A stretch of DNA of 31,026 nt from positions 1 to 31,026 of IMG/VR virus record IMGVR_UViG_2579778802_000007; one strand, given 5' to 3'. Of this stretch, positions 11,570 through 25,904 are shown in pieces; within the stretch, counting starts at the first letter, position 1; each line of letters begins with the position of its first letter. The translations under genes and the position numbers were made by a program. Source of the stretch: a virus (lineage: Duplodnaviria; Heunggongvirae; Uroviricota; Caudoviricetes). The notes under the pieces are model-generated. The model had not been told where the DNA came from. It did no database searches and was given only the letters and a program-made list of their open reading frames with translations.

Positions 11570-12097
11570 ATGAACCGTAAAAGTCTTGCTGCTATTGCAA
11601 TGGTGCTGGCAACATCATGTGGATATGCCGCCACAATAAAAGTCCCCATGAACCTTGTTAATGCCGATGGTAAAGAGGTGAGCGCCGGAACAATAACTAT
11701 CCAGGAGACCAGCTATGGTCTCCTGTTCACACCAGATCTGCACTCTTTACCTCAGGGCATTCATGGATTTCATGTGCACGAAAAGGGAAGTTGCGCGCCG
11801 GCTCTGAAAGATGGAGTATCTGTTGCGGCATTAGCAGCTGGCGGTCACTTTGACCCGAAACAGACTGGAAAACATCTTGGTCCCTGGTCTCCTGATGGTC
11901 ACCTGGGCGATCTCCCGGCTCTGTACGTGACTCATGACGGAAAAGCAAACTATCCGGTTCTCGCACCAAAACTGAAAGAATTAACAGAAATAAGCGGACG
12001 GTCTCTTATGATCCACATTGGCGGTGACAACTATCATGACCATCCAGATCCACTCGGCGGCGGCGGTGCAAGAATGGGCTGTGGTATCATCCCATAA
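11570..12097 (+). CDS. sodC: Periplasmic Cu,Zn superoxide dismutase with N-terminal signal peptide (accessory gene)
   Basis: Motifs '[10 protein letters not shown]', 'GGHFDP', 'GHLGDLP', '[12 protein letters not shown]' match bacterial SodC; hydrophobic N-terminus; RBS GAGGG. Confidence 0.92.
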
Positions 12098-12337: not shown

Positions 12338-13018
12338 TTACCCCTGCCGCCCGATAACCACGACCTTTCCGCCCCCGCCTTCATCACGGGTACTGATGTC
12401 CTGGGAGATTCGCCGGGAGCCAACCAGCATTTCCCCGTAAGGCACCGGCATCGGGTTCCCCTGGGCAATCATGTTATCCAGCGAGGAAAAGTACGTGTTC
12501 TGTCTGCCGTTATCCGTTACGCGGTAATCCGGTGTTTTTGCCTTCGGGGCCAGCATCTGTGCCATACCGCCCAGTATCATGCTGGCCCCCAGTGAAAACA
12601 GCATCGTGGTGGCAGAAAAACCACCGGCTGCCAGGGCTGAACCCCATAACGCCATCGAGGCACCGGCCGTGAAGAAAGAGCCCACGATGGCTGCCGCCCC
12701 CAGCACAATCTGCAGTCCGCCCTTTCCGGCTCCGGCCAGTCGCGGCACAATGTGGATGACCGTTCCCTCACCCAGCTGTTCGTGAAGACGGGCGTACACC
12801 GCCTCCGGTGCCGTGTCATCACCGGCAATACGTATCTGGTACCAGCCTTCGTTCATCTGACGGCGAAAGCCCGGCATCTGCATCGACAGGGCGCGAATGG
12901 CTTCCGCTGCCGTGTTCACATACAGGCTGAGGCGGCGGCCAAATCGTTGTAAATCCCCGTGAAGGCAGATGCGTGCCAGTGGCGGTGACGCCAGACAGAA
13001 TGCGTTCGTCGTTGCCAT
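12338..13018 (-). CDS. I: Tail assembly protein I
   Basis: Similarity to lambda gpI ('ARICLHGDLQRFGRR...QIVLGAAAIVGSFFTAG...KTPDYRVTDNGRQNTYFSSLDNM'). Confidence 0.93.
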   Translation of the reverse strand: MATTNAFCLASPPLARICLHGDLQRFGRRLSLYVNTAAEAIRALSMQMPGFRRQMNEGWYQIRIAGDDTAPEAVYARLHEQLGEGTVIHIVPRLAGAGKGGLQIVLGAAAIVGSFFTAGASMALWGSALAAGGFSATTMLFSLGASMILGGMAQMLAPKAKTPDYRVTDNGRQNTYFSSLDNMIAQGNPMPVPYGEMLVGSRRISQDISTRDEGGGGKVVVIGRQG

Positions 13019-13653
13019 TTTTCGGAATACCTCTCCCGTTTACTCAGTTGTTCAGGCAGATGGTGAAGCAGCTCACCGTTGCCACAGTAAATGGCGGCAT
13101 GGTTCGGTACCGAAGCACCAAAGCAGCACAGCAGAATATCGCCCGCCTGTGCAGAGGACAGGGGCACCCGGTAAAAGCCCGTTCCCTCCATATTGTCCAG
13201 GTACAGGTTCTGGCCATTGCGCCACCAGTCATCCTCGCGATGAAAATCCGGCATTTCAGTCCCCGCCAGATGGTAAGCATCCCGGAACAGGGTGTAACAG
13301 TCCGTCACCCCGTGTTCAAAGCGCCGTCCCGTCAGGTGTGGCACACAGCGGAATTTGTGAATGTCACCCCGGCAGACCAGCCACCAGGGCAGTGCGCTTT
13401 TTATCTGCAGCCGCCGGTCAGCCTCGCTCAGCCAGGGCAGCCCACCGGGATGACTGTGGACCAGTGCCACAATCTCCCCCGACATCTCTGCCCGCAGCCA
13501 GTCTTCCGGTGCGATACGAAAATACGCCTCCGGCTCTGCGGAAATATTCACACAAGGGATATACCGCTCCCCCTCCGGCGTTCTCACCACGAAGCCGCAC
13601 GACTCCGCAGGCGCACACCGCCGGGCATGTGCCAATATATTGCTATAGAGCAT
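12916..13653 (-). CDS. K: Tail assembly protein K (NlpC/P60-like, JAB/MPN-like)
   Basis: Similarity to lambda gpK ('VHSHPGG.PWLSEADRRLQ...HLTGRRFEHGVTDC.TLFRDAYHLAG'). Start set to ATG 13653, which has AGGAG upstream. Confidence 0.93.
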   Translation of the reverse strand: MLYSNILAHARRCAPAESCGFVVRTPEGERYIPCVNISAEPEAYFRIAPEDWLRAEMSGEIVALVHSHPGGLPWLSEADRRLQIKSALPWWLVCRGDIHKFRCVPHLTGRRFEHGVTDCYTLFRDAYHLAGTEMPDFHREDDWWRNGQNLYLDNMEGTGFYRVPLSSAQAGDILLCCFGASVPNHAAIYCGNGELLHHLPEQLSKRERYSEKWQRRTHSVWRHRHWHASAFTGIYNDLAAASACM

Positions 13654-13707
13654 GAGAACTCCTGATAAAAAACCCAGCCGAGGCTGGGTCATTTCGTTGG
13701 TAATCTG

Positions 13708-14610
13708 TTAGTAGTGATGCAGTGAAGGCGGCAACTCTTTGCTCTTAAGCCTTACCCATGCGGAAAGATTCGTTGGTCCATCTGGCTCATTAATATCAAC
13801 ATCTCGTGTGTGATTGATTAAAACGTCTCTCGCCATTCCAATAACATACGAGAACTCATGGCCGTAGTTGTAGCACCTGTCAGAATAGTTCGATTGAATT
13901 TGCTTTAGCGCCGGATACAGTTCGCGGAATAATGCCTGTGAGCGGTTGGCATAATCCCATAGCCATACAAGGCTGTTTGCTTCTTTTGCGGAAAGCTCGT
14001 TGGTTTTCTTCTCTTGTTTGCCAATGAACTCACCTTCAAGCACTACCCTGTGGATGTACTCTACGGCTTGCGGTATCTGAGATGCATCAAGCTCTTCAAT
14101 ACTTTCCACATTGAAACGCTGATGAATCATTGCATAAGCTTCTGGGTACATTAGATGCTTTTTGCTGACCAGCATATTTACAGCATCACGAAGCGGAGTC
14201 CTGTCATCAACAGATGTTTTCTTACGTGCATTTTCTGCCTTTCCCTTTGTCCAGTAGTCATGCAGCACAGTAAAGCATTCTTCCTGGTACTGAATCAGTT
14301 TATCGCGGATGTCAGCACGAACTTTCTCGGGGTTGATGCTGAACAGCCATCCATTTAACTTCTTCAAAGGAAGGCAGAGTAGCTTACGAAGCTTTCCATC
14401 AGCAGCAACCATATTCATATGAATACAGTTGAACTTATCTAGTTGTTTCATAAGTTTTTGTTGCTGAGTACCCCAGCTCATTCCGAGGTTTTCAACGATT
14501 GGCTTCATCGCAACATATGCAACTCCGGCAGCCATGGCGGTGATAATTTGCTGACCGTTGAATGGTACGTAAGAGGTGTTCACTGCTTCTAAAATTGCTA
14601 TACTATTCAT
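13708..14610 (-). CDS. Antirepressor-like protein (P22 Ant N-terminal-type domain)
   Basis: N-terminus '[22 protein letters not shown]...[21 protein letters not shown]' resembles antirepressor N-terminal domains. Sits downstream of the arc-like gene, as ant does in P22 immI. Start at ATG 14610 (GGAG upstream). Confidence 0.55.
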
Positions 14611-14672
14611 GTTGGTTTTTCTCCACGGATTTACTGACAACCGAAGCCCTGACTGTTCCCGCAGTTGGGGCT

Positions 14673-14876
14673 TCAACTTTCTGCTCTATCAGTTATATCT
14701 TTCCCTTCATATACTTCACCTATATTGCTAATGCTGGCAGAACATCCAAGATGCTTGTATCTTATGATGTCCAACACGCAGTCACTACACAGCATCCGAC
14801 CTGTTTCTTTAGAGTAAATGTATGTTTGATCAGCGTCTGATTCGCTAATGCCGCAGAAACAACATTCTTTACTCAT
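14673..14876 (-). CDS. Small Cys-rich protein (67 aa; CxxC...CxxC, zinc-ribbon-like), hypothetical
   Basis: ATG overlaps the arc-like stop (ATGA); purine-rich SD upstream; 'CCFCG...CSDCV' motif. Confidence 0.4.
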
Positions 14877-15025
14877 ACCATTACCCCCTCTCTCTTCAAG
14901 CTGTCTATCAGGCGCTTGATAACCTCTGAGTTAAACGACCTGCACTCTTCCTTTGCCCTGCTACCTATAGCATCCTTTAACGACTGCGGCATCCTTACCA
15001 AAATCTTACTTATTTCTTTCTCCAT
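14873..15025 (-). CDS. arc: Arc-like ribbon-helix-helix repressor
   Basis: 'MPQSLKDAIGSRAKEECRSFNSEVIKRLIDSLKREG' resembles P22 Arc ('...VRKVAEENGRSVNSEIYQRVMESFKKEG'). Start at ATG 15025 (GGAGGG 4 nt upstream); an alternative in-frame ATG lies at 15037. Confidence 0.7.
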   Translation of the reverse strand: MEKEISKILVRMPQSLKDAIGSRAKEECRSFNSEVIKRLIDSLKREGVMV

Positions 15026-15139
15026 GTTACCCTCCATACAAACAACTCTTTTCGAATACAAAAGATAGCAAAGCGAGTATATCTAGTCAAAATTTTTTTG
15101 CATACACTTTGCTATCAAATTGAATACCAAAGGTGTGAT
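15026..15139. promoter_or_regulatory. Divergent arc/mnt control region with 10-bp perfect inverted repeat GATAGCAAAG (15064-15073) / CTTTGCTATC (15107-15116)
   Basis: Inverted repeat seen in sequence; divergent RHH genes flank it as in the P22 Pant/Pmnt region. Confidence 0.45.
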
Positions 15140-15388
15140 ATGGCAAAGGGTGTGTCAATTTCTCCAACTACGGTAAGAATCCCTGAATCTTTACGCGAGG
15201 CTCTTGCTGTCAGAGCATCAAAAAATGGTCGCTCTGTTAACTCCGAGATCGTCATGATTTTGCAAGCCGCGATTGATGAAGATAGGTCGCCAAAGTCAGT
15301 TGAGTCATTTGCTCAGCAAGAAGCAGACAAATTCAAAGAGGCGCTGCTTGAGACGCTAAAGACCATGTATGGTAAGGATGAAAAATAA
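15140..15388 (+). CDS. mnt: Mnt-like ribbon-helix-helix repressor (83 aa)
   Basis: 'ESLREALAVRASKNGRSVNSEIVMILQAAIDE' resembles P22 Mnt ('...KLKFRAEANGRSMNSELLQIVQDAL'). Same length as P22 Mnt; SD AAGGTG upstream. Confidence 0.7.
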   Translation: MAKGVSISPTTVRIPESLREALAVRASKNGRSVNSEIVMILQAAIDEDRSPKSVESFAQQEADKFKEALLETLKTMYGKDEK

Positions 15389-15924
15389 TGCTGCACACAA
15401 TTCATTTCTTATGCCCCGTTAACACTGCCACTGTTGGGCAACTTCAGAACCACTGTCTCACCGCATTATCTCAAGGCGCAACTGAATTAAATATCCATAT
15501 ATCAAGTCAGGGAGGGGAAACTGCCGCTGGCTTTACTGCGTATAACTTTCTTAAGTCACTCCCTGTTACCGTTAGAACTCACAACATAAGCAATGTTGAA
15601 TCCATAGCTAATATCGTTTTCCTGGCTGGCTCAGAACGTTTCGCAAACCCATTATCAAGATTCCTGTTACATCCTCTATTATGGTGCTTTGCCTCCCCAG
15701 CCGCCGACCATGCCAGATTGAGAGAGTACGGGAAATGCCTCGATAACGATCTTGATCGCTTCGTTGAGACGTTCAATATCGACATCGGAACCCATATTAG
15801 GTGGGCATCCCTGATAGCAGACTCGACCATTTTGGATGCTAACAAGGCTCTTGAGCATGGCATAATTAATTCCATAAAAACTGCAAGGCTGGCATCCAAT
15901 CAGGCAAACTGGTGGGTTGTTTGA
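15388..15924 (+). CDS. ClpP/crotonase-fold serine peptidase-like protein (S14/S49-like), translationally coupled to mnt (TAATG overlap)
   Basis: 'ELNIHISSQGGETAAGFTAYNFLKSLPVTVRTHNISNVESIANIVFLAGSERFANPLSRFLLHP' parallels the ClpP core ('IYLYINSPGG...GQAASMGAFLL...RVMIHQP'), with candidate Ser and His at corresponding positions. Confidence 0.7.
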   Translation: MLHTIHFLCPVNTATVGQLQNHCLTALSQGATELNIHISSQGGETAAGFTAYNFLKSLPVTVRTHNISNVESIANIVFLAGSERFANPLSRFLLHPLLWCFASPAADHARLREYGKCLDNDLDRFVETFNIDIGTHIRWASLIADSTILDANKALEHGIINSIKTARLASNQANWWVV

Positions 15925-15944
15925 TGGGTAAATCATGATTACTC

Positions 15945-15971
15945 CTTATAAAAAACCCACCTGACGGTGGG
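15945..15971 (-). terminator. Rho-independent terminator on the late (minus) strand immediately after L (CCCACC-GTCA-GGTGGG + TTTTTTAT)
   Basis: 6-bp GC stem with 4-nt loop followed by a T-run in the minus orientation, about 10 nt past the L stop. Confidence 0.55.
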
Positions 15972-15980
15972 CATAATCCA

Positions 15981-16679
15981 TTACTGCGAAAGTTTATTAA
16001 TGGAAAGGAAACCGCCAAAATTGCCGACATTCCTGCGCAGTTCACACCCGCGCATGCACTTGCTGCATCTGTCCTTACGGATATCCGTGGTGGGTTTATC
16101 GAACTCATCCGCCACAGCCCCGCCCGTGTAACCACACTCATCAGAGCGGTAGGTCCACATACAGGTGTTCGCCAGCATGATACGACCGGGAAACAGCGCC
16201 CCGTCCGTCTCGGTCGGTGTGGCCAGCACAAACGAGGCCGTCATGGCTGTCAGCTCCGACATCTGCTCCACCACCCAGCGGTCACTCAGCTCCTGCTCCG
16301 GGTCCGCCTCCGGATTGCCCGCAACGAAATTCACCGCATCCAGAAAACGGGCATACACCCGGCGGCGGACCACCGTGGCCCCCACCAGGCTCTGCAAATC
16401 CTCCGCCATTCCGGTGACAAGACCAAACAGATTGGACACCGTCAGCGACGGTCTGGCACTGCTGCCCTTCCCGCTCATCTCAAAACCGCTGCCGTCAATC
16501 GGGTATGCCTCATACTTACGCCCCTGCCAGGTGACCGGCTCCCCTTTTTCATTCAGCTCATTACAGAAAAAATACCGCTCACCGCCCTGTACCGTCAGGT
16601 CGATTTCCCAGAGTACCACCCGCGGTGACTGCTCTGATTTAACCGACTCGTTCAGACTTTCTTCGTGAATATCCTGCAT
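15981..16679 (-). CDS. L: Minor tail protein L
   Basis: Near-collinear identity with lambda gpL ('MQDIHEESLNE...WEIDLT..GGERYFFCNE.NEKGEPVTWQGR.Y'). Confidence 0.95.
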   Translation of the reverse strand: MQDIHEESLNESVKSEQSPRVVLWEIDLTVQGGERYFFCNELNEKGEPVTWQGRKYEAYPIDGSGFEMSGKGSSARPSLTVSNLFGLVTGMAEDLQSLVGATVVRRRVYARFLDAVNFVAGNPEADPEQELSDRWVVEQMSELTAMTASFVLATPTETDGALFPGRIMLANTCMWTYRSDECGYTGGAVADEFDKPTTDIRKDRCSKCMRGCELRRNVGNFGGFLSINKLSQ

Positions 16680-24398: not shown

Positions 24399-25904
24399 TC
24401 ATGGCATGGCCATGAGCATTTTCACGTCCGCATCACCGTCTGCCGACGTCTGTGACACGCCACCCTGCACGGCTGCCGGTGAATGGTTCGCCATGATGCG
24501 TTCAAACATGGCGGTTGTGGATGCAGAAACCGGTTCTGCTTTATCCGGCGATGAGGACAGAATGTCGCGGGCAGCCTCCACCGTCATTCCGGGAAACGCC
24601 GCCAGTTTTTCAGCCTGCGCCTCAGCCCCTTTTGCCTCATCCAGAGCCATAATCTGATCACGGAGTGAGGGTCCGGCATCCGCCTGCGGTGAAGCCGCCA
24701 GGATCGGGCGGGCTTTTTCCACCGTCATCTCCGGCATCGCCGCCAGCGTTGCCGCCAGTTGTTCACGACCTTTAGCCTCTTCACACGCCATAATGCGATC
24801 GGCTTCACTCTGCGTGGATGCCACCGGCTGCTGTGGTGCTGCCGCGGTCAGAATCGCCCGGGCCTGTTCAACGCTCATGCCCTGTTGTCCTGCCAGCATC
24901 GTGGCAAGCTGTTCACGTCCTTTCGCTTCCTGACACGTCAGGATCCCCATCACTCGCTGGTTCTCCTGCGCGGCAGCTTCCGTTGCAGTTAATTGCGGCA
25001 TAGTGCCTCCTGTATCATGTGTGTTCAGCGCCGCAGCCATCACGCTGATGGCATCCGACGCATTGATTAATTCATCCGCCAGCCCGGCCTCAATGCCGGA
25101 CTGACCTTCAAAAACGGCGGCCTCTGTTCCCGTGACTGCATCAACAGACAGACCGGTATACATCGCCACTTTTTCGGCAAACATCCGGCGCGCCGCATCA
25201 ATCCGCTGCTGCATGTCCTGGCGAACCTCTTCCGGCAACGCTTCAAACTGATTGCCATCCACCTTGTGCGCCCCTGAGTAAATCAGCGTGATATCCACAC
25301 CGGCCTGCGCCAGATGACCGGCATAGCTGACATGGCTCATCATCACGCCAATGGAGCCGATACGGGATGTCTGGGTAACCAGCCGTCGGGAGCAGGCCGA
25401 CGCCAGCAGCATGGCTGCAGAACAGGCCGTGTCATTGCACAGTGCCCAGACCGGCTTCTGCTGACGGAGGCGGTAAATCATGTCAGCACAGTCAAACGCA
25501 CCGGCGGCCTGCCCGCCCGGACTGTCAATGTCCAGCAGTACGCCCCGCACCTGGCTATCTGCCATTGCCTGCTGAAGACAGGCGACAATGCCGTCATAGC
25601 CTGTCATTCCGGAAAATGGCCGCATACCCCCCAGCCGGTGCACCAGCGTGCCTGTCACCGGCAGTACCGCAATACCGTTCACCACCCGGTAAACACGGGC
25701 CGGTCGTTTACCTCCGGCCATGTACTCGTCCGTTTCAGCCAGCATTCCGGGTGCATCAAGCTGTACCTGCTGTTGTGGTACCGAAAGACTTGCTGCCCCC
25801 ATCTCGCGCCCGAGCGCGCAAAAGAAAACCCGCGCATAGGCGGGCTCCAGAAGCAGCGGTTCATTGAATGCTGCTGCAATAATGTGTGAAAGATTACGTC
25901 TCAC
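24399..25904 (-). CDS. C: Capsid assembly protease C (S49/ClpP-like) with in-frame scaffold (Nu3-like) C-terminal region containing three tandem ~35-aa repeats
   Basis: Similarity to lambda gpC ('AFNEPLLLEPAYARVFFCAL', 'PVTGTLV.R.....YSGMTGY.GI', 'VWAL.ND...SA..LLASA.SRRLVTQT.R.GSIGVMM'). Confidence 0.93.
   Translation of the reverse strand: MRRNLSHIIAAAFNEPLLLEPAYARVFFCALGREMGAASLSVPQQQVQLDAPGMLAETDEYMAGGKRPARVYRVVNGIAVLPVTGTLVHRLGGMRPFSGMTGYDGIVACLQQAMADSQVRGVLLDIDSPGGQAAGAFDCADMIYRLRQQKPVWALCNDTACSAAMLLASACSRRLVTQTSRIGSIGVMMSHVSYAGHLAQAGVDITLIYSGAHKVDGNQFEALPEEVRQDMQQRIDAARRMFAEKVAMYTGLSVDAVTGTEAAVFEGQSGIEAGLADELINASDAISVMAAALNTHDTGGTMPQLTATEAAAQENQRVMGILTCQEAKGREQLATMLAGQQGMSVEQARAILTAAAPQQPVASTQSEADRIMACEEAKGREQLAATLAAMPEMTVEKARPILAASPQADAGPSLRDQIMALDEAKGAEAQAEKLAAFPGMTVEAARDILSSSPDKAEPVSASTTAMFERIMANHSPAAVQGGVSQTSADGDADVKMLMAMP

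Follow-up and report, generated by a model that had tools for sequence, protein, structure and literature searches.

In phage lambda, the tail genes L and K are adjacent. In the DNA analysed in this study, the same two genes are separated by approximately 2.3 kb, and the question raised by this locus is what the intervening sequence is, where it came from and what its genes might do. The stretch, referred to here as the window, comprises 31,026 nucleotides (positions 1 to 31,026 of the IMG/VR virus record IMGVR_UViG_2579778802_000007, Caudoviricetes), and a survey of its open reading frames (ORFs) together with Pfam matches identifies it as a lambda-like prophage's late region, whose genes are read on the minus strand. 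A preliminary description, made from the sequence alone, had proposed that the interval holds an island resembling the immI region of phage P22, with an additional gene for a ClpP-like peptidase. According to our analysis, the island is a known and common module, and only its two passenger genes, one encoding the ClpP-like protein and the other a small protein with four cysteines (the Cys4 protein, orf67), are unexplained. Taking all of its parts together, we consider it probable that the island is a P22-type immI module, or "ant moron", located in the L-K junction, with a P22-like circuit, a ClpP-like passenger that would form a ring subunit pairing with host ClpP, and a zinc-binding orf67 protein.

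The interval is bounded by the gene for minor tail protein L (15981-16679, minus strand; Pfam Phage_tail_L, 6.9e-92) and the tail assembly gene K (12916-13653, minus strand; Pfam Prok-JAB and NlpC/P60). The start of K had been placed at 13692 and is corrected here to 13653; K is 738 bp in the annotation of PhiR12. The ORFs, the Pfam assignments of L and K, and the drop in GC content (0.40-0.47 over 13600-16000 vs. 0.55-0.63 in the flanking tail genes) bear out an interval of approximately 2.3 kb that carries five ORFs on the strands originally described. In Stx1_499, a phage without the island, the empty L-K site has the two genes 10 bp apart, which confirms their adjacency. Alignment with this empty site places the insertion ends at ~13635 and ~15980. 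The P22-derived part of the island extends from hairpin to hairpin (13667-15971) and matches P22-like E. coli prophages at ~96% identity, with the exception of the slot for the small ORF. The island contains ant, the antisense RNA sar, orf67, arc, the divergent gene mnt and the ClpP-like gene. The original inventory of five genes stands, although the sar RNA and the two terminator hairpins at the boundaries had been missed. An empty site in a relative, a predicted promoter and terminators of its own, and a deviant base composition mark the island as a moron, and like an immI region it lies inside a late operon, where ant points in the same direction as the late genes and a terminator stands at each end.

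Profile searches uphold the Ant, Arc and ClpP assignments. The ant gene (13708-14610, minus strand) encodes an antirepressor of 300 amino acids that matches Pfam P22_AR_N (8.5e-45) and P22_AR_C (2.8e-28), and the protein aligns with P22 Ant without gaps at 86% amino-acid identity over 300 residues. At the DNA level, ant is 85% identical to its P22 counterpart and 95% identical to that of epsilon34. A longer ORF with a TTG start was rejected as an artefact, and the alignment with P22 Ant begins at the ATG at 14610. Judged by its sequence, the island ant is a true orthologue of P22 ant. The sar RNA, which is complementary to the ribosome-binding region of ant, adjoins this ATG (14611-14678, plus strand; Rfam RF00262) and is detected at its full length (1-68) with a score of 95.6 bits vs. 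a gathering score of 43 (E=1.2e-20). The window is nearly identical to P22 and epsilon34 from the 5′ end of ant through sar, and this near-identity ends exactly at the stop codon of P22 arc. Within the first ant codons, 6 nt before the 5′ end of sar, lies a putative extended -10 element for Psar (TGcTATACT, 14596-14604, plus strand). This stretch is also nearly identical in P22 and epsilon34, and epsilon34 is annotated with Psar at the same place; a promoter function at 14596-14604 therefore appears likely from the comparison.

The preliminary description had also recognized a divergent pair of ribbon-helix-helix (RHH) proteins, and full-length alignments with the P22 repressors support this reading. 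The arc gene (14873-15025, minus strand) encodes an Arc-family RHH repressor of 50 amino acids (Pfam Arc, 8.5e-12; 32% identity to P22 Arc). It is the first gene of the ant operon, upstream of ant on the shared strand, and in relatives a 153-bp arc gene is annotated by the Prokaryotic Genome Annotation Pipeline (PGAP). The mnt gene (15140-15388, plus strand) encodes an Mnt-like RHH repressor of 82 amino acids (Pfam Arc, 1.4e-10; FitA-like RHH, 3e-8) that is 35% identical to P22 Mnt, and the alignment includes the C-terminal half with its LxxLKxxYxK stretch. The residues of the N-terminal beta-strand of Arc and Mnt read the operator. These strands differ between the window and P22 in both Arc (SKILVRMP vs. 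PQFNLRWP) and Mnt (SPTTVRIP vs. PHFNFRMP), and different operators are therefore expected. When the Oarc and Omnt sequences of P22 were looked for in the control region of the island, neither was present. The 10-bp inverted repeat that had been noticed between the two genes is exact (GATAGCAAAG, 15064-15073; CTTTGCTATC, 15107-15116), with arms 43 bp apart centre to centre, and approximately 0.01 such repeats would be expected by chance in 131 bp, as estimated from the size of the region. A promoter scan identified a putative Pant (15062-15090, minus strand) with a -35 element TTGACT, a 17-nt spacer and an extended -10 element TGcTATCTT. A putative extended -10 element for Pmnt (TGcTATCAA, 15110-15118, plus strand) was recognized by inspection as the mirror image of the Pant -10 element and was not reported by the promoter scan. 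Each arm of the repeat overlaps the extended -10 element of one of the divergent putative promoters, and the two arms are the best candidates for the operator sites.

Both ends of the island are marked by hairpins that are terminators for minus-strand transcripts. An intrinsic terminator hairpin follows ant (GACCCAGCCTCGGCTGGGT and a T-run; 13671-13690, minus strand; terminator scan) and forms the left limit of the P22-derived DNA: the homology to P22-like phages starts at 13667, and a terminator is annotated in epsilon34 at the equivalent place. The same scan identified a second terminator hairpin just downstream of L (GCCCACCGTCAGGTGGGT and a T-run; 15955-15972, minus strand), which forms the right limit. 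According to the junction alignment, this L-side hairpin is common to the window, WGPS6, PhiR12 and the P22-like prophage phiv205-1, and phiv205-1 diverges directly beyond it. At the K-side junction (13635-13666, minus strand), a new 5′ end of K (MLYSNIL...) and a Shine-Dalgarno (SD) sequence, AGGAG, stand directly after the ant terminator in the alignment with Stx1_499, WGPS6 and PhiR12. The first seven K codons and the ribosome-binding site differ from those of empty-site phages and are common to all of the island-bearing phages examined, and the junctions on both the K and the L sides are identical among these phages. Because the junctions are identical among the occupants, the comparison suggests one ancestral L-K insertion that was followed by internal exchange with P22-type ant morons. 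Near-identical strings occur after both hairpins (GGGTTTTTTATCAGGAGTTCTCATG and GGGTTTTTTATAAGGAGTAATCATG; 13653-13690 and 15934-15972, minus strand), and this repeated string of terminator, SD sequence and ATG may be a recombination handle. The L-side string begins an ORF for 85 amino acids antisense to the ClpP-like gene (15679-15936, minus strand). This ORF, which has a strong SD sequence after the L-side hairpin, is probably spurious; it is not open in divergent homologues.

Comparison with known systems indicates where the parts came from. The immI region of P22 (mnt, arc, sar and ant; GenBank X01916) and the island have the same gene order, strands and late-operon location, with ant co-oriented with the late genes, and their sar/ant junctions are nearly identical; the promoters predicted in the island are divergent, like those of P22. 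However, the low identity of Arc and Mnt and the DNA-contact strands and operators set the island apart, as do its two extra genes and its host operon, which is the tail operon of a siphovirus instead of the interval between genes 16 and 9 in P22. Closer relatives are the ant morons of E. coli P22-like prophages (APEC-1 in APEC O1, phiv205-1 [MN340231] and EC.P3), which have ~96-98% nucleotide identity to the window over ant-sar and over arc-mnt-clpP-like and end at the same right-hand hairpin. These morons differ in that they adjoin a podovirus tailspike gene, and where the window has the Cys4 ORF, between arc and sar, they carry an unrelated ORF for 57 amino acids. In phiv205-1, APEC O1 and strain 10035776-3, the matching block (~95-98% identity), including the ClpP-like gene, lies next to the tailspike gene of a P22-like prophage, which is the classical place of immI. 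The fifth gene had been described as having no counterpart in the classical immI region, and this is true of P22 and epsilon34, from which it is absent, but it is present after mnt in the P22-like E. coli prophages. The island itself is a mosaic of three types: that of epsilon34/phiv205 in ant-sar, that of CUS-3/UTI89 (94.6%) in the segment with the Cys ORF (14680-14956), and that of phiv205/EC.P3 (98%) in arc-mnt-clpP.

Other phages carry related cassettes in the L-K site. The cassette of Stx2a_WGPS6 has the same site and junctions as the window and contains ant, an arc-like gene and an mnt-like gene only, with no sar match and no ClpP-like gene. Phages 2851, 1717 and YYZ-2008 probably have the same content, as judged from the common L-side junction. 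The cassette of PhiR12 and CP55_Sichuan has the order ant-sar-arc'-mnt'-clpP-like; the Cys4 ORF is absent, and the N-terminal specificity regions of Arc and Mnt are different. The homology between PhiR12_1/CP55 and the window breaks inside mnt at ~15296. On one side of this point, arc, the operators and the part of mnt that encodes the DNA-binding half have been exchanged together; on the other side, the C-terminal half of Mnt and the ClpP-like gene are ~98% identical. This breakpoint is a specificity swap within one gene. In the CP55_Sichuan prophage (NZ_CP053731; locus L030, 4597-5760), a complete ompC porin gene is annotated between the tail genes M and L.

The number of related cassettes was determined in 5426 complete E. 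coli genomes. The junction of hairpin and L occurs in 461 of them (~8%), including the Shiga toxin (Stx) phages of O157:H7, a ClpP-like gene abuts L in 15, and 52 carry at least 80% of the island; the two of these that were inspected proved to be P22-like prophages. The exact combination found in the window occurs in none of the 5426 genomes. A scan of genome contigs for relatives yielded only eight loci. According to Villafane et al. (2008), who named the interval the "ant moron" and drew the APEC-1 type among others, only the P22 version has been studied (PMC2629481); the text of that paper does not mention Clp. The idea of a cassette placed inside a late operon is correct to the extent that a P22-type module does lie there, but the implied novelty was overstated, considering the number of L-K junctions of this type and the APEC O1 type drawn in 2008. 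A literature search found no description of a prophage ClpP-like moron or of an immI cassette between tail genes, and the relevant literature that it found was limited to the 2008 paper and a 2026 paper on the ClpP1 of Pseudomonas plecoglossicida (PpClpP1; PMC12900304). As far as we found, neither the ClpP-like gene nor the Cys4 ORF has yet been characterised.

The probable operation of the island can be outlined by analogy with P22, whose biology (work of Susskind, Sauer and colleagues, summarised in PMC2629481 and PMC8022706) is the reason for the steps proposed here. In a lysogen, Mnt produced from Pmnt would repress Pant, and no Ant would be made. After entry of the genome into a cell without Mnt, or after the loss of Mnt, Pant would fire and Arc, the orf67 protein and Ant would be produced. 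Ant would then inactivate repressors of the CI/C2 type, possibly those of co-resident lambdoid prophages, after which Arc would shut the promoters and sar would block the translation of ant. Since arc, orf67 and ant face the same way as the tail genes, late transcripts that are antiterminated can cross the island, and Q-antiterminated transcription would pass both hairpins and reach K, I and J, with K translated from an SD sequence of its own that appears to have been acquired directly after the ant terminator. The immI region of P22 itself lies inside the late operon, and P22 late transcripts cross it to reach gene 9 in an equivalent arrangement (PMC2629481, PMC8022706). Therefore, a location within a late operon should be considered the native condition of the module and not an anomaly. 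The ClpP-like gene would stand outside this circuit as a passenger that is expressed in the lysogen through Pmnt and translational coupling to mnt.

The ClpP-like gene (15388-15924, plus strand; Pfam CLP_protease, 2e-11) encodes an N-terminally truncated peptidase-like protein of 178 amino acids, and its start codon, ATG, overlaps the stop codon of mnt by one base (TAATG), as it also does in Pectobacterium. The ClpP fold proposed for the fifth protein is confirmed by the Pfam match, by the closest solved relative, PpClpP1 (9uxt_A, E=1.6e-35), and by an AlphaFold2 (AF2) model with a mean predicted local distance difference test (pLDDT) score of 92.4, which Foldseek superimposes on 9uxt_A with a template modelling (TM) score of 0.92 and a root-mean-square deviation of 2.0 Å. 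The TM scores of the model with the ClpPs of E. coli, S. aureus and T. thermophilus are ~0.8. In a residue census of 65 family members, S72 and H95, the equivalents of Ser97 and His122, are invariant (65/65), and the position of Asp171 is occupied by Ser in the window and by Ala, Ser, Gly or Thr across the family, never by an acidic residue, so that the protein lacks the standard Ser-His-Asp triad. Its chain begins at the equivalent of mature residue 24 of E. coli ClpP, and the N-terminal axial loops, which in canonical ClpP form the gate of the pore and touch ClpX/ClpA, are absent. In E. coli ClpP, the hydrophobic docking pocket for the IGF/LGF loops of ClpX/ClpA is formed by Y60, Y62, F82, I90, L114 and L189. 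The corresponding residues in the window are polar (Y60N, Y62H, F82S, I90H, L114N and L189K), and the family is similar. The NCBIfam ClpP models (equivalog or subfamily) score this protein at 19-40 bits vs. cut-offs of 228-361. The annotation of phiv205-1 and the PHROG names imply a phage head maturation protease, and this reading was ruled out: the NF045542 score is 49 bits vs. a cut-off of 120, the gene has a tail-region position on the opposite strand, and the phage has an S49 gpC-type protease of its own (24399-25904).

Members of this family, ~180 amino acids in length, occur in many Enterobacterales and in Chromobacterium, and in every enterobacterial or Chromobacterium context examined, the gene lies in a prophage on the strand opposite to its neighbours. 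The settings, which comprise at least four unrelated prophage positions, include the position after mnt in P22-like ant morons (among them that of a Pectobacterium P22-like prophage), the interval between the lysis genes and terminase, the interval between the N gene and the recombination genes, and the interval between the tail-fibre and lysis genes of a myovirus-like prophage. Because it recurs at such varied positions, the ClpP-like gene is a mobile prophage passenger and not a component of immI. The Pseudomonas homologues, which include the PpClpP1/9UXT branch (contigs L031-L034, gene at 5001-5552), are chromosomal and lie repeatedly beside genes for a KGG-repeat stress protein and a DUF6555 protein. 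These neighbours hint at a stress-linked role for the family. The possibility that PpClpP1 itself is prophage-borne was ruled out by the same chromosomal contexts. From this, it looks as if phages captured their versions of the gene from an accessory paralogue on a chromosome.

The properties of PpClpP1 suggest what the phage protein might do. On its own, PpClpP1 assembles into a homotetradecamer whose pore measures 42.7 Å; its peptidase activity is weak, and it shows no binding to ClpX or pull-down of it. Together with the canonical ClpP2 it forms a heterotetradecamer that enhances ClpX-dependent degradation (PMC12900304). The window protein and PpClpP1 are alike in their length (~180 amino acids), in their N-terminal truncation, in the retention of Ser and His and in the absence of the catalytic Asp; they differ in that their identity is ~40-50% and the third triad position is Pro in PpClpP1 vs. 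Ser in the window. The ClpP1 proteins of Listeria and M. tuberculosis, which are partner-ring ClpPs, are among the next-best structural matches after 9UXT (TM ~0.8), and the triad of Listeria ClpP1 is likewise non-canonical, being Ser-His-Asn (cited in PMC12900304). However, these are core-gene products that keep the N-terminal region, and they are only ~20-24% identical to the ClpP-like protein. The window protein most likely assembles into a ring of the ClpP type that has a Ser-His dyad and a wide pore and offers no site to ClpX or ClpA. By analogy, this ring would pair with a host ClpP ring and alter host Clp proteolysis as PpClpP1 does. Our best guess is thus an accessory ring, made in the lysogen and joined to the ClpP of the host, and its main rival is a stand-alone exclusion or defence peptidase. 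We also offer a more specific version, which is tentative and, taken in full, rather unlikely. In it, the passenger would be a prophage "decoy ring" that pairs with the host ClpP heptamer and retunes ClpXP and ClpAP in lysogens, thereby altering the stability of phage regulators or replication proteins (with effects on immunity or exclusion) or of host stress regulators. It would have been captured by Enterobacterales temperate phages from a pseudomonad-like, stress-linked chromosomal paralogue and would represent a previously unrecognised class of lysogenic-conversion gene directed at host proteolysis.

Several observations weigh against the P22-like circuit and the ring-pairing role. In the Pfam scan, the Mnt-like protein of the window is not matched by Repressor_Mnt (PF11423); the Mnt orthologue of Pectobacterium does carry this domain. 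In the island, the two promoters are predicted to stand back to back, the distance between their -10 elements being 46 bp vs. ~18 bp in P22, where the promoters overlap, and because of this arrangement the regulatory logic may differ from that of P22 in detail. The main repressor gene of the prophage does not lie within the window. With respect to the ClpP-like protein, pairing with E. coli ClpP is an extrapolation from PpClpP1, whose gene is chromosomal in Pseudomonas and beside stress genes, whereas the enterobacterial genes are prophage passengers.

At first glance, it might appear that the island is a decaying, non-functional remnant in a defective prophage, because many E. coli lambdoid prophages are defective and because ant morons change rapidly and have frequently decayed, HK620 and Scho1 being examples (PMC2629481). 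However, the five ORFs show no interruption or shortening when compared with their homologues, sar is full-length and high-scoring, and the SD sequences and the stop/start codon overlaps are preserved; moreover, a cassette closely related to this one occupies the L-K site of PhiR12_1, 4 and 5, which are inducible phages. We therefore consider decay quite improbable. The remaining alternatives concern the ClpP-like protein. If it acted alone, it could be a superinfection-exclusion or anti-phage factor, a chaperone-independent open-pore peptidase that degrades unfolded or injected proteins of incoming phages in the niche that sieA holds near P22 mnt. The gene is always on the opposite strand, at sites typical of prophage-expressed genes, and is coupled to mnt, the sole immI gene made in lysogens; the protein has no N-terminal gate, its solved relative has the 42.7 Å pore (PMC12900304), and sieA occupies the equivalent region of P22 (PMC2629481). 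Nevertheless, none of the five island proteins, the ClpP-like protein included, matches any PADLOC 2023 anti-phage defence model, the peptidase activity of the solved relative is only weak (PMC12900304), and the chromosomal Pseudomonas homologues beside KGG stress genes point to a housekeeping or stress role. On balance, we regard exclusion as unlikely, although it is the foremost of these alternatives.

The same coupling to mnt admits two further explanations. In one, the ClpP-like protein would be a post-translational safety device of immI that is made together with Mnt and degrades leaky Ant (or Arc) in lysogens. The one-base overlap with the mnt stop codon, here and in Pectobacterium, agrees with this idea, since the coupling has been kept despite the divergence of Mnt to 41% identity. 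However, family members stand alone in prophage regions without ant, arc or mnt within 5 kb and in Pseudomonas chromosomes, and the gene is absent from P22, epsilon34 and the WGPS6-type cassettes, which makes a dedicated function in immI very unlikely. In the other, mnt and the ClpP-like gene would form an addiction pair resembling a toxin-antitoxin system, with an RHH antitoxin and a toxic unregulated peptidase that stabilise the island. The type II architecture, in which the RHH gene comes first and the stop and start codons overlap, and the match of the FitA-like RHH Pfam model to the Mnt-like protein (3e-8) are in accordance with such a pair. However, the pairing is not obligate, as the ClpP-like gene has no RHH neighbour in Klebsiella, Proteus, Chromobacterium and Pseudomonas contexts; the RHH protein aligns over its full length with P22 Mnt, including the C-terminal oligomerisation half; and PpClpP1 has been overexpressed in E. 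coli for purification (PMC12900304). This explanation is the least credible of all and is rejected.

The second passenger gene, orf67 (14673-14876, minus strand), encodes 67 amino acids with the pattern C5-x2-C8-x21-C30-x2-C33. Its start overlaps the arc stop codon (ATGA), and its end lies inside the sar terminator. The protein matches PHROG 7150 (3e-50), which is annotated as of unknown function, and has no Pfam match at E ≤ 10. It has a handful of close homologues, among them the fusion to Arc described below, and one distant relative of 68 amino acids that is 37% identical and keeps the CCFCG...C..C pattern. This relative was the one genuine short homologue among 1.84 billion representatives covered by a full HMMER scan; the sole long match inspected was a repetitive eukaryotic protein, and the remaining long multi-stretch matches were judged spurious. 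At the DNA level, orf67 is present in 372 of the 5426 complete E. coli genomes and in CUS-3. The AF2 model has low confidence (pLDDT 58.6), and its best Foldseek matches are generic zinc-finger domains (PHD, ZZ, FYVE and RING) and ribosomal zinc-binding proteins, with E-values of at least 0.19. The motifs CxFCGxS and xCxxCV had raised the idea of a free-standing ClpX zinc-binding domain (zf-C4_ClpX), and this idea is unsupported: in addition to the lack of a Pfam match, phmmer against the PDB returned no ClpX chain, BLASTP aligned only 11 residues, and the Foldseek matches are generic. We conclude that orf67 probably encodes a real, narrowly distributed, small zinc-binding protein that would be produced together with Arc and Ant. 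Under the decoy-ring reading, this arc-coupled Cys4 protein might be a second modulator, acting in the infection phase.

Two further observations concern arc and the Cys4 gene. In a Logan contig (P0001, 112 amino acids; a cluster of seven sequences), an Arc homologue is fused in frame to a Cys4 protein, which suggests either a functional link between Arc and the Cys4 protein or a sequencing or frameshift artefact. In CUS-3 (CP000711; locus L008, 2432-2900), a stretch annotated only as "bsq2 boundary sequence" encodes a sar RNA (84.6 bits), a 67-amino-acid Cys protein identical to that of the window and, overlapping the latter, a homologue of Arc (MKVKTLRMPEKLEK...). According to the 2008 ant-moron paper, CUS-3 apparently has no arc (PMC2629481).

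The island shows that the secondary-immunity module of P22 travels as a whole from one late operon to another, even where the virion types are unrelated: from the tailspike region of a podovirus to the tail-tip region of a siphovirus, with its ends marked by terminator hairpins and its strand logic kept. Antirepressors can induce co-resident prophages in trans, as has been shown for other antirepressors with the Gifsy prophages of Salmonella (PMC3121763), and therefore the L-K cassettes may influence the induction of Stx phages. In addition, the truncated ClpP is widespread as a prophage passenger, and the one relative of it that has been studied modulates the housekeeping Clp protease. Should the phage protein act on host Clp likewise, it would represent a new way for prophages to reprogramme host proteolysis.

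The rest of the window has the organization of a lambda-like late region. In minus-strand order, it contains genes for terminase gpA, a lambda-family portal, the S49 gpC-type protease and major capsid protein E, then tape measure H, M and L; downstream of L are the island, K, I, a plus-strand sodC, J, a tail fibre gene and the gene for its assembly protein. The sodC gene (11570-12097, plus strand; Pfam Sod_Cu, 8e-32) encodes a Cu/Zn superoxide dismutase and lies between the tail genes I and J on the opposite strand, in a patch that is also low in GC (0.43-0.52). With it, the tail operon that holds the island has received a second passenger. At the left end of the window, past the tail-fibre genes, are plus-strand genes for an integrase-family ORF of 241 amino acids (159-884), a Rha-domain regulatory protein (1499-2071) and a methyltransferase (2809-3477). 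Rha-family proteins are another class of phage regulators, and the prophage may thus carry a second regulator of the Rha type.

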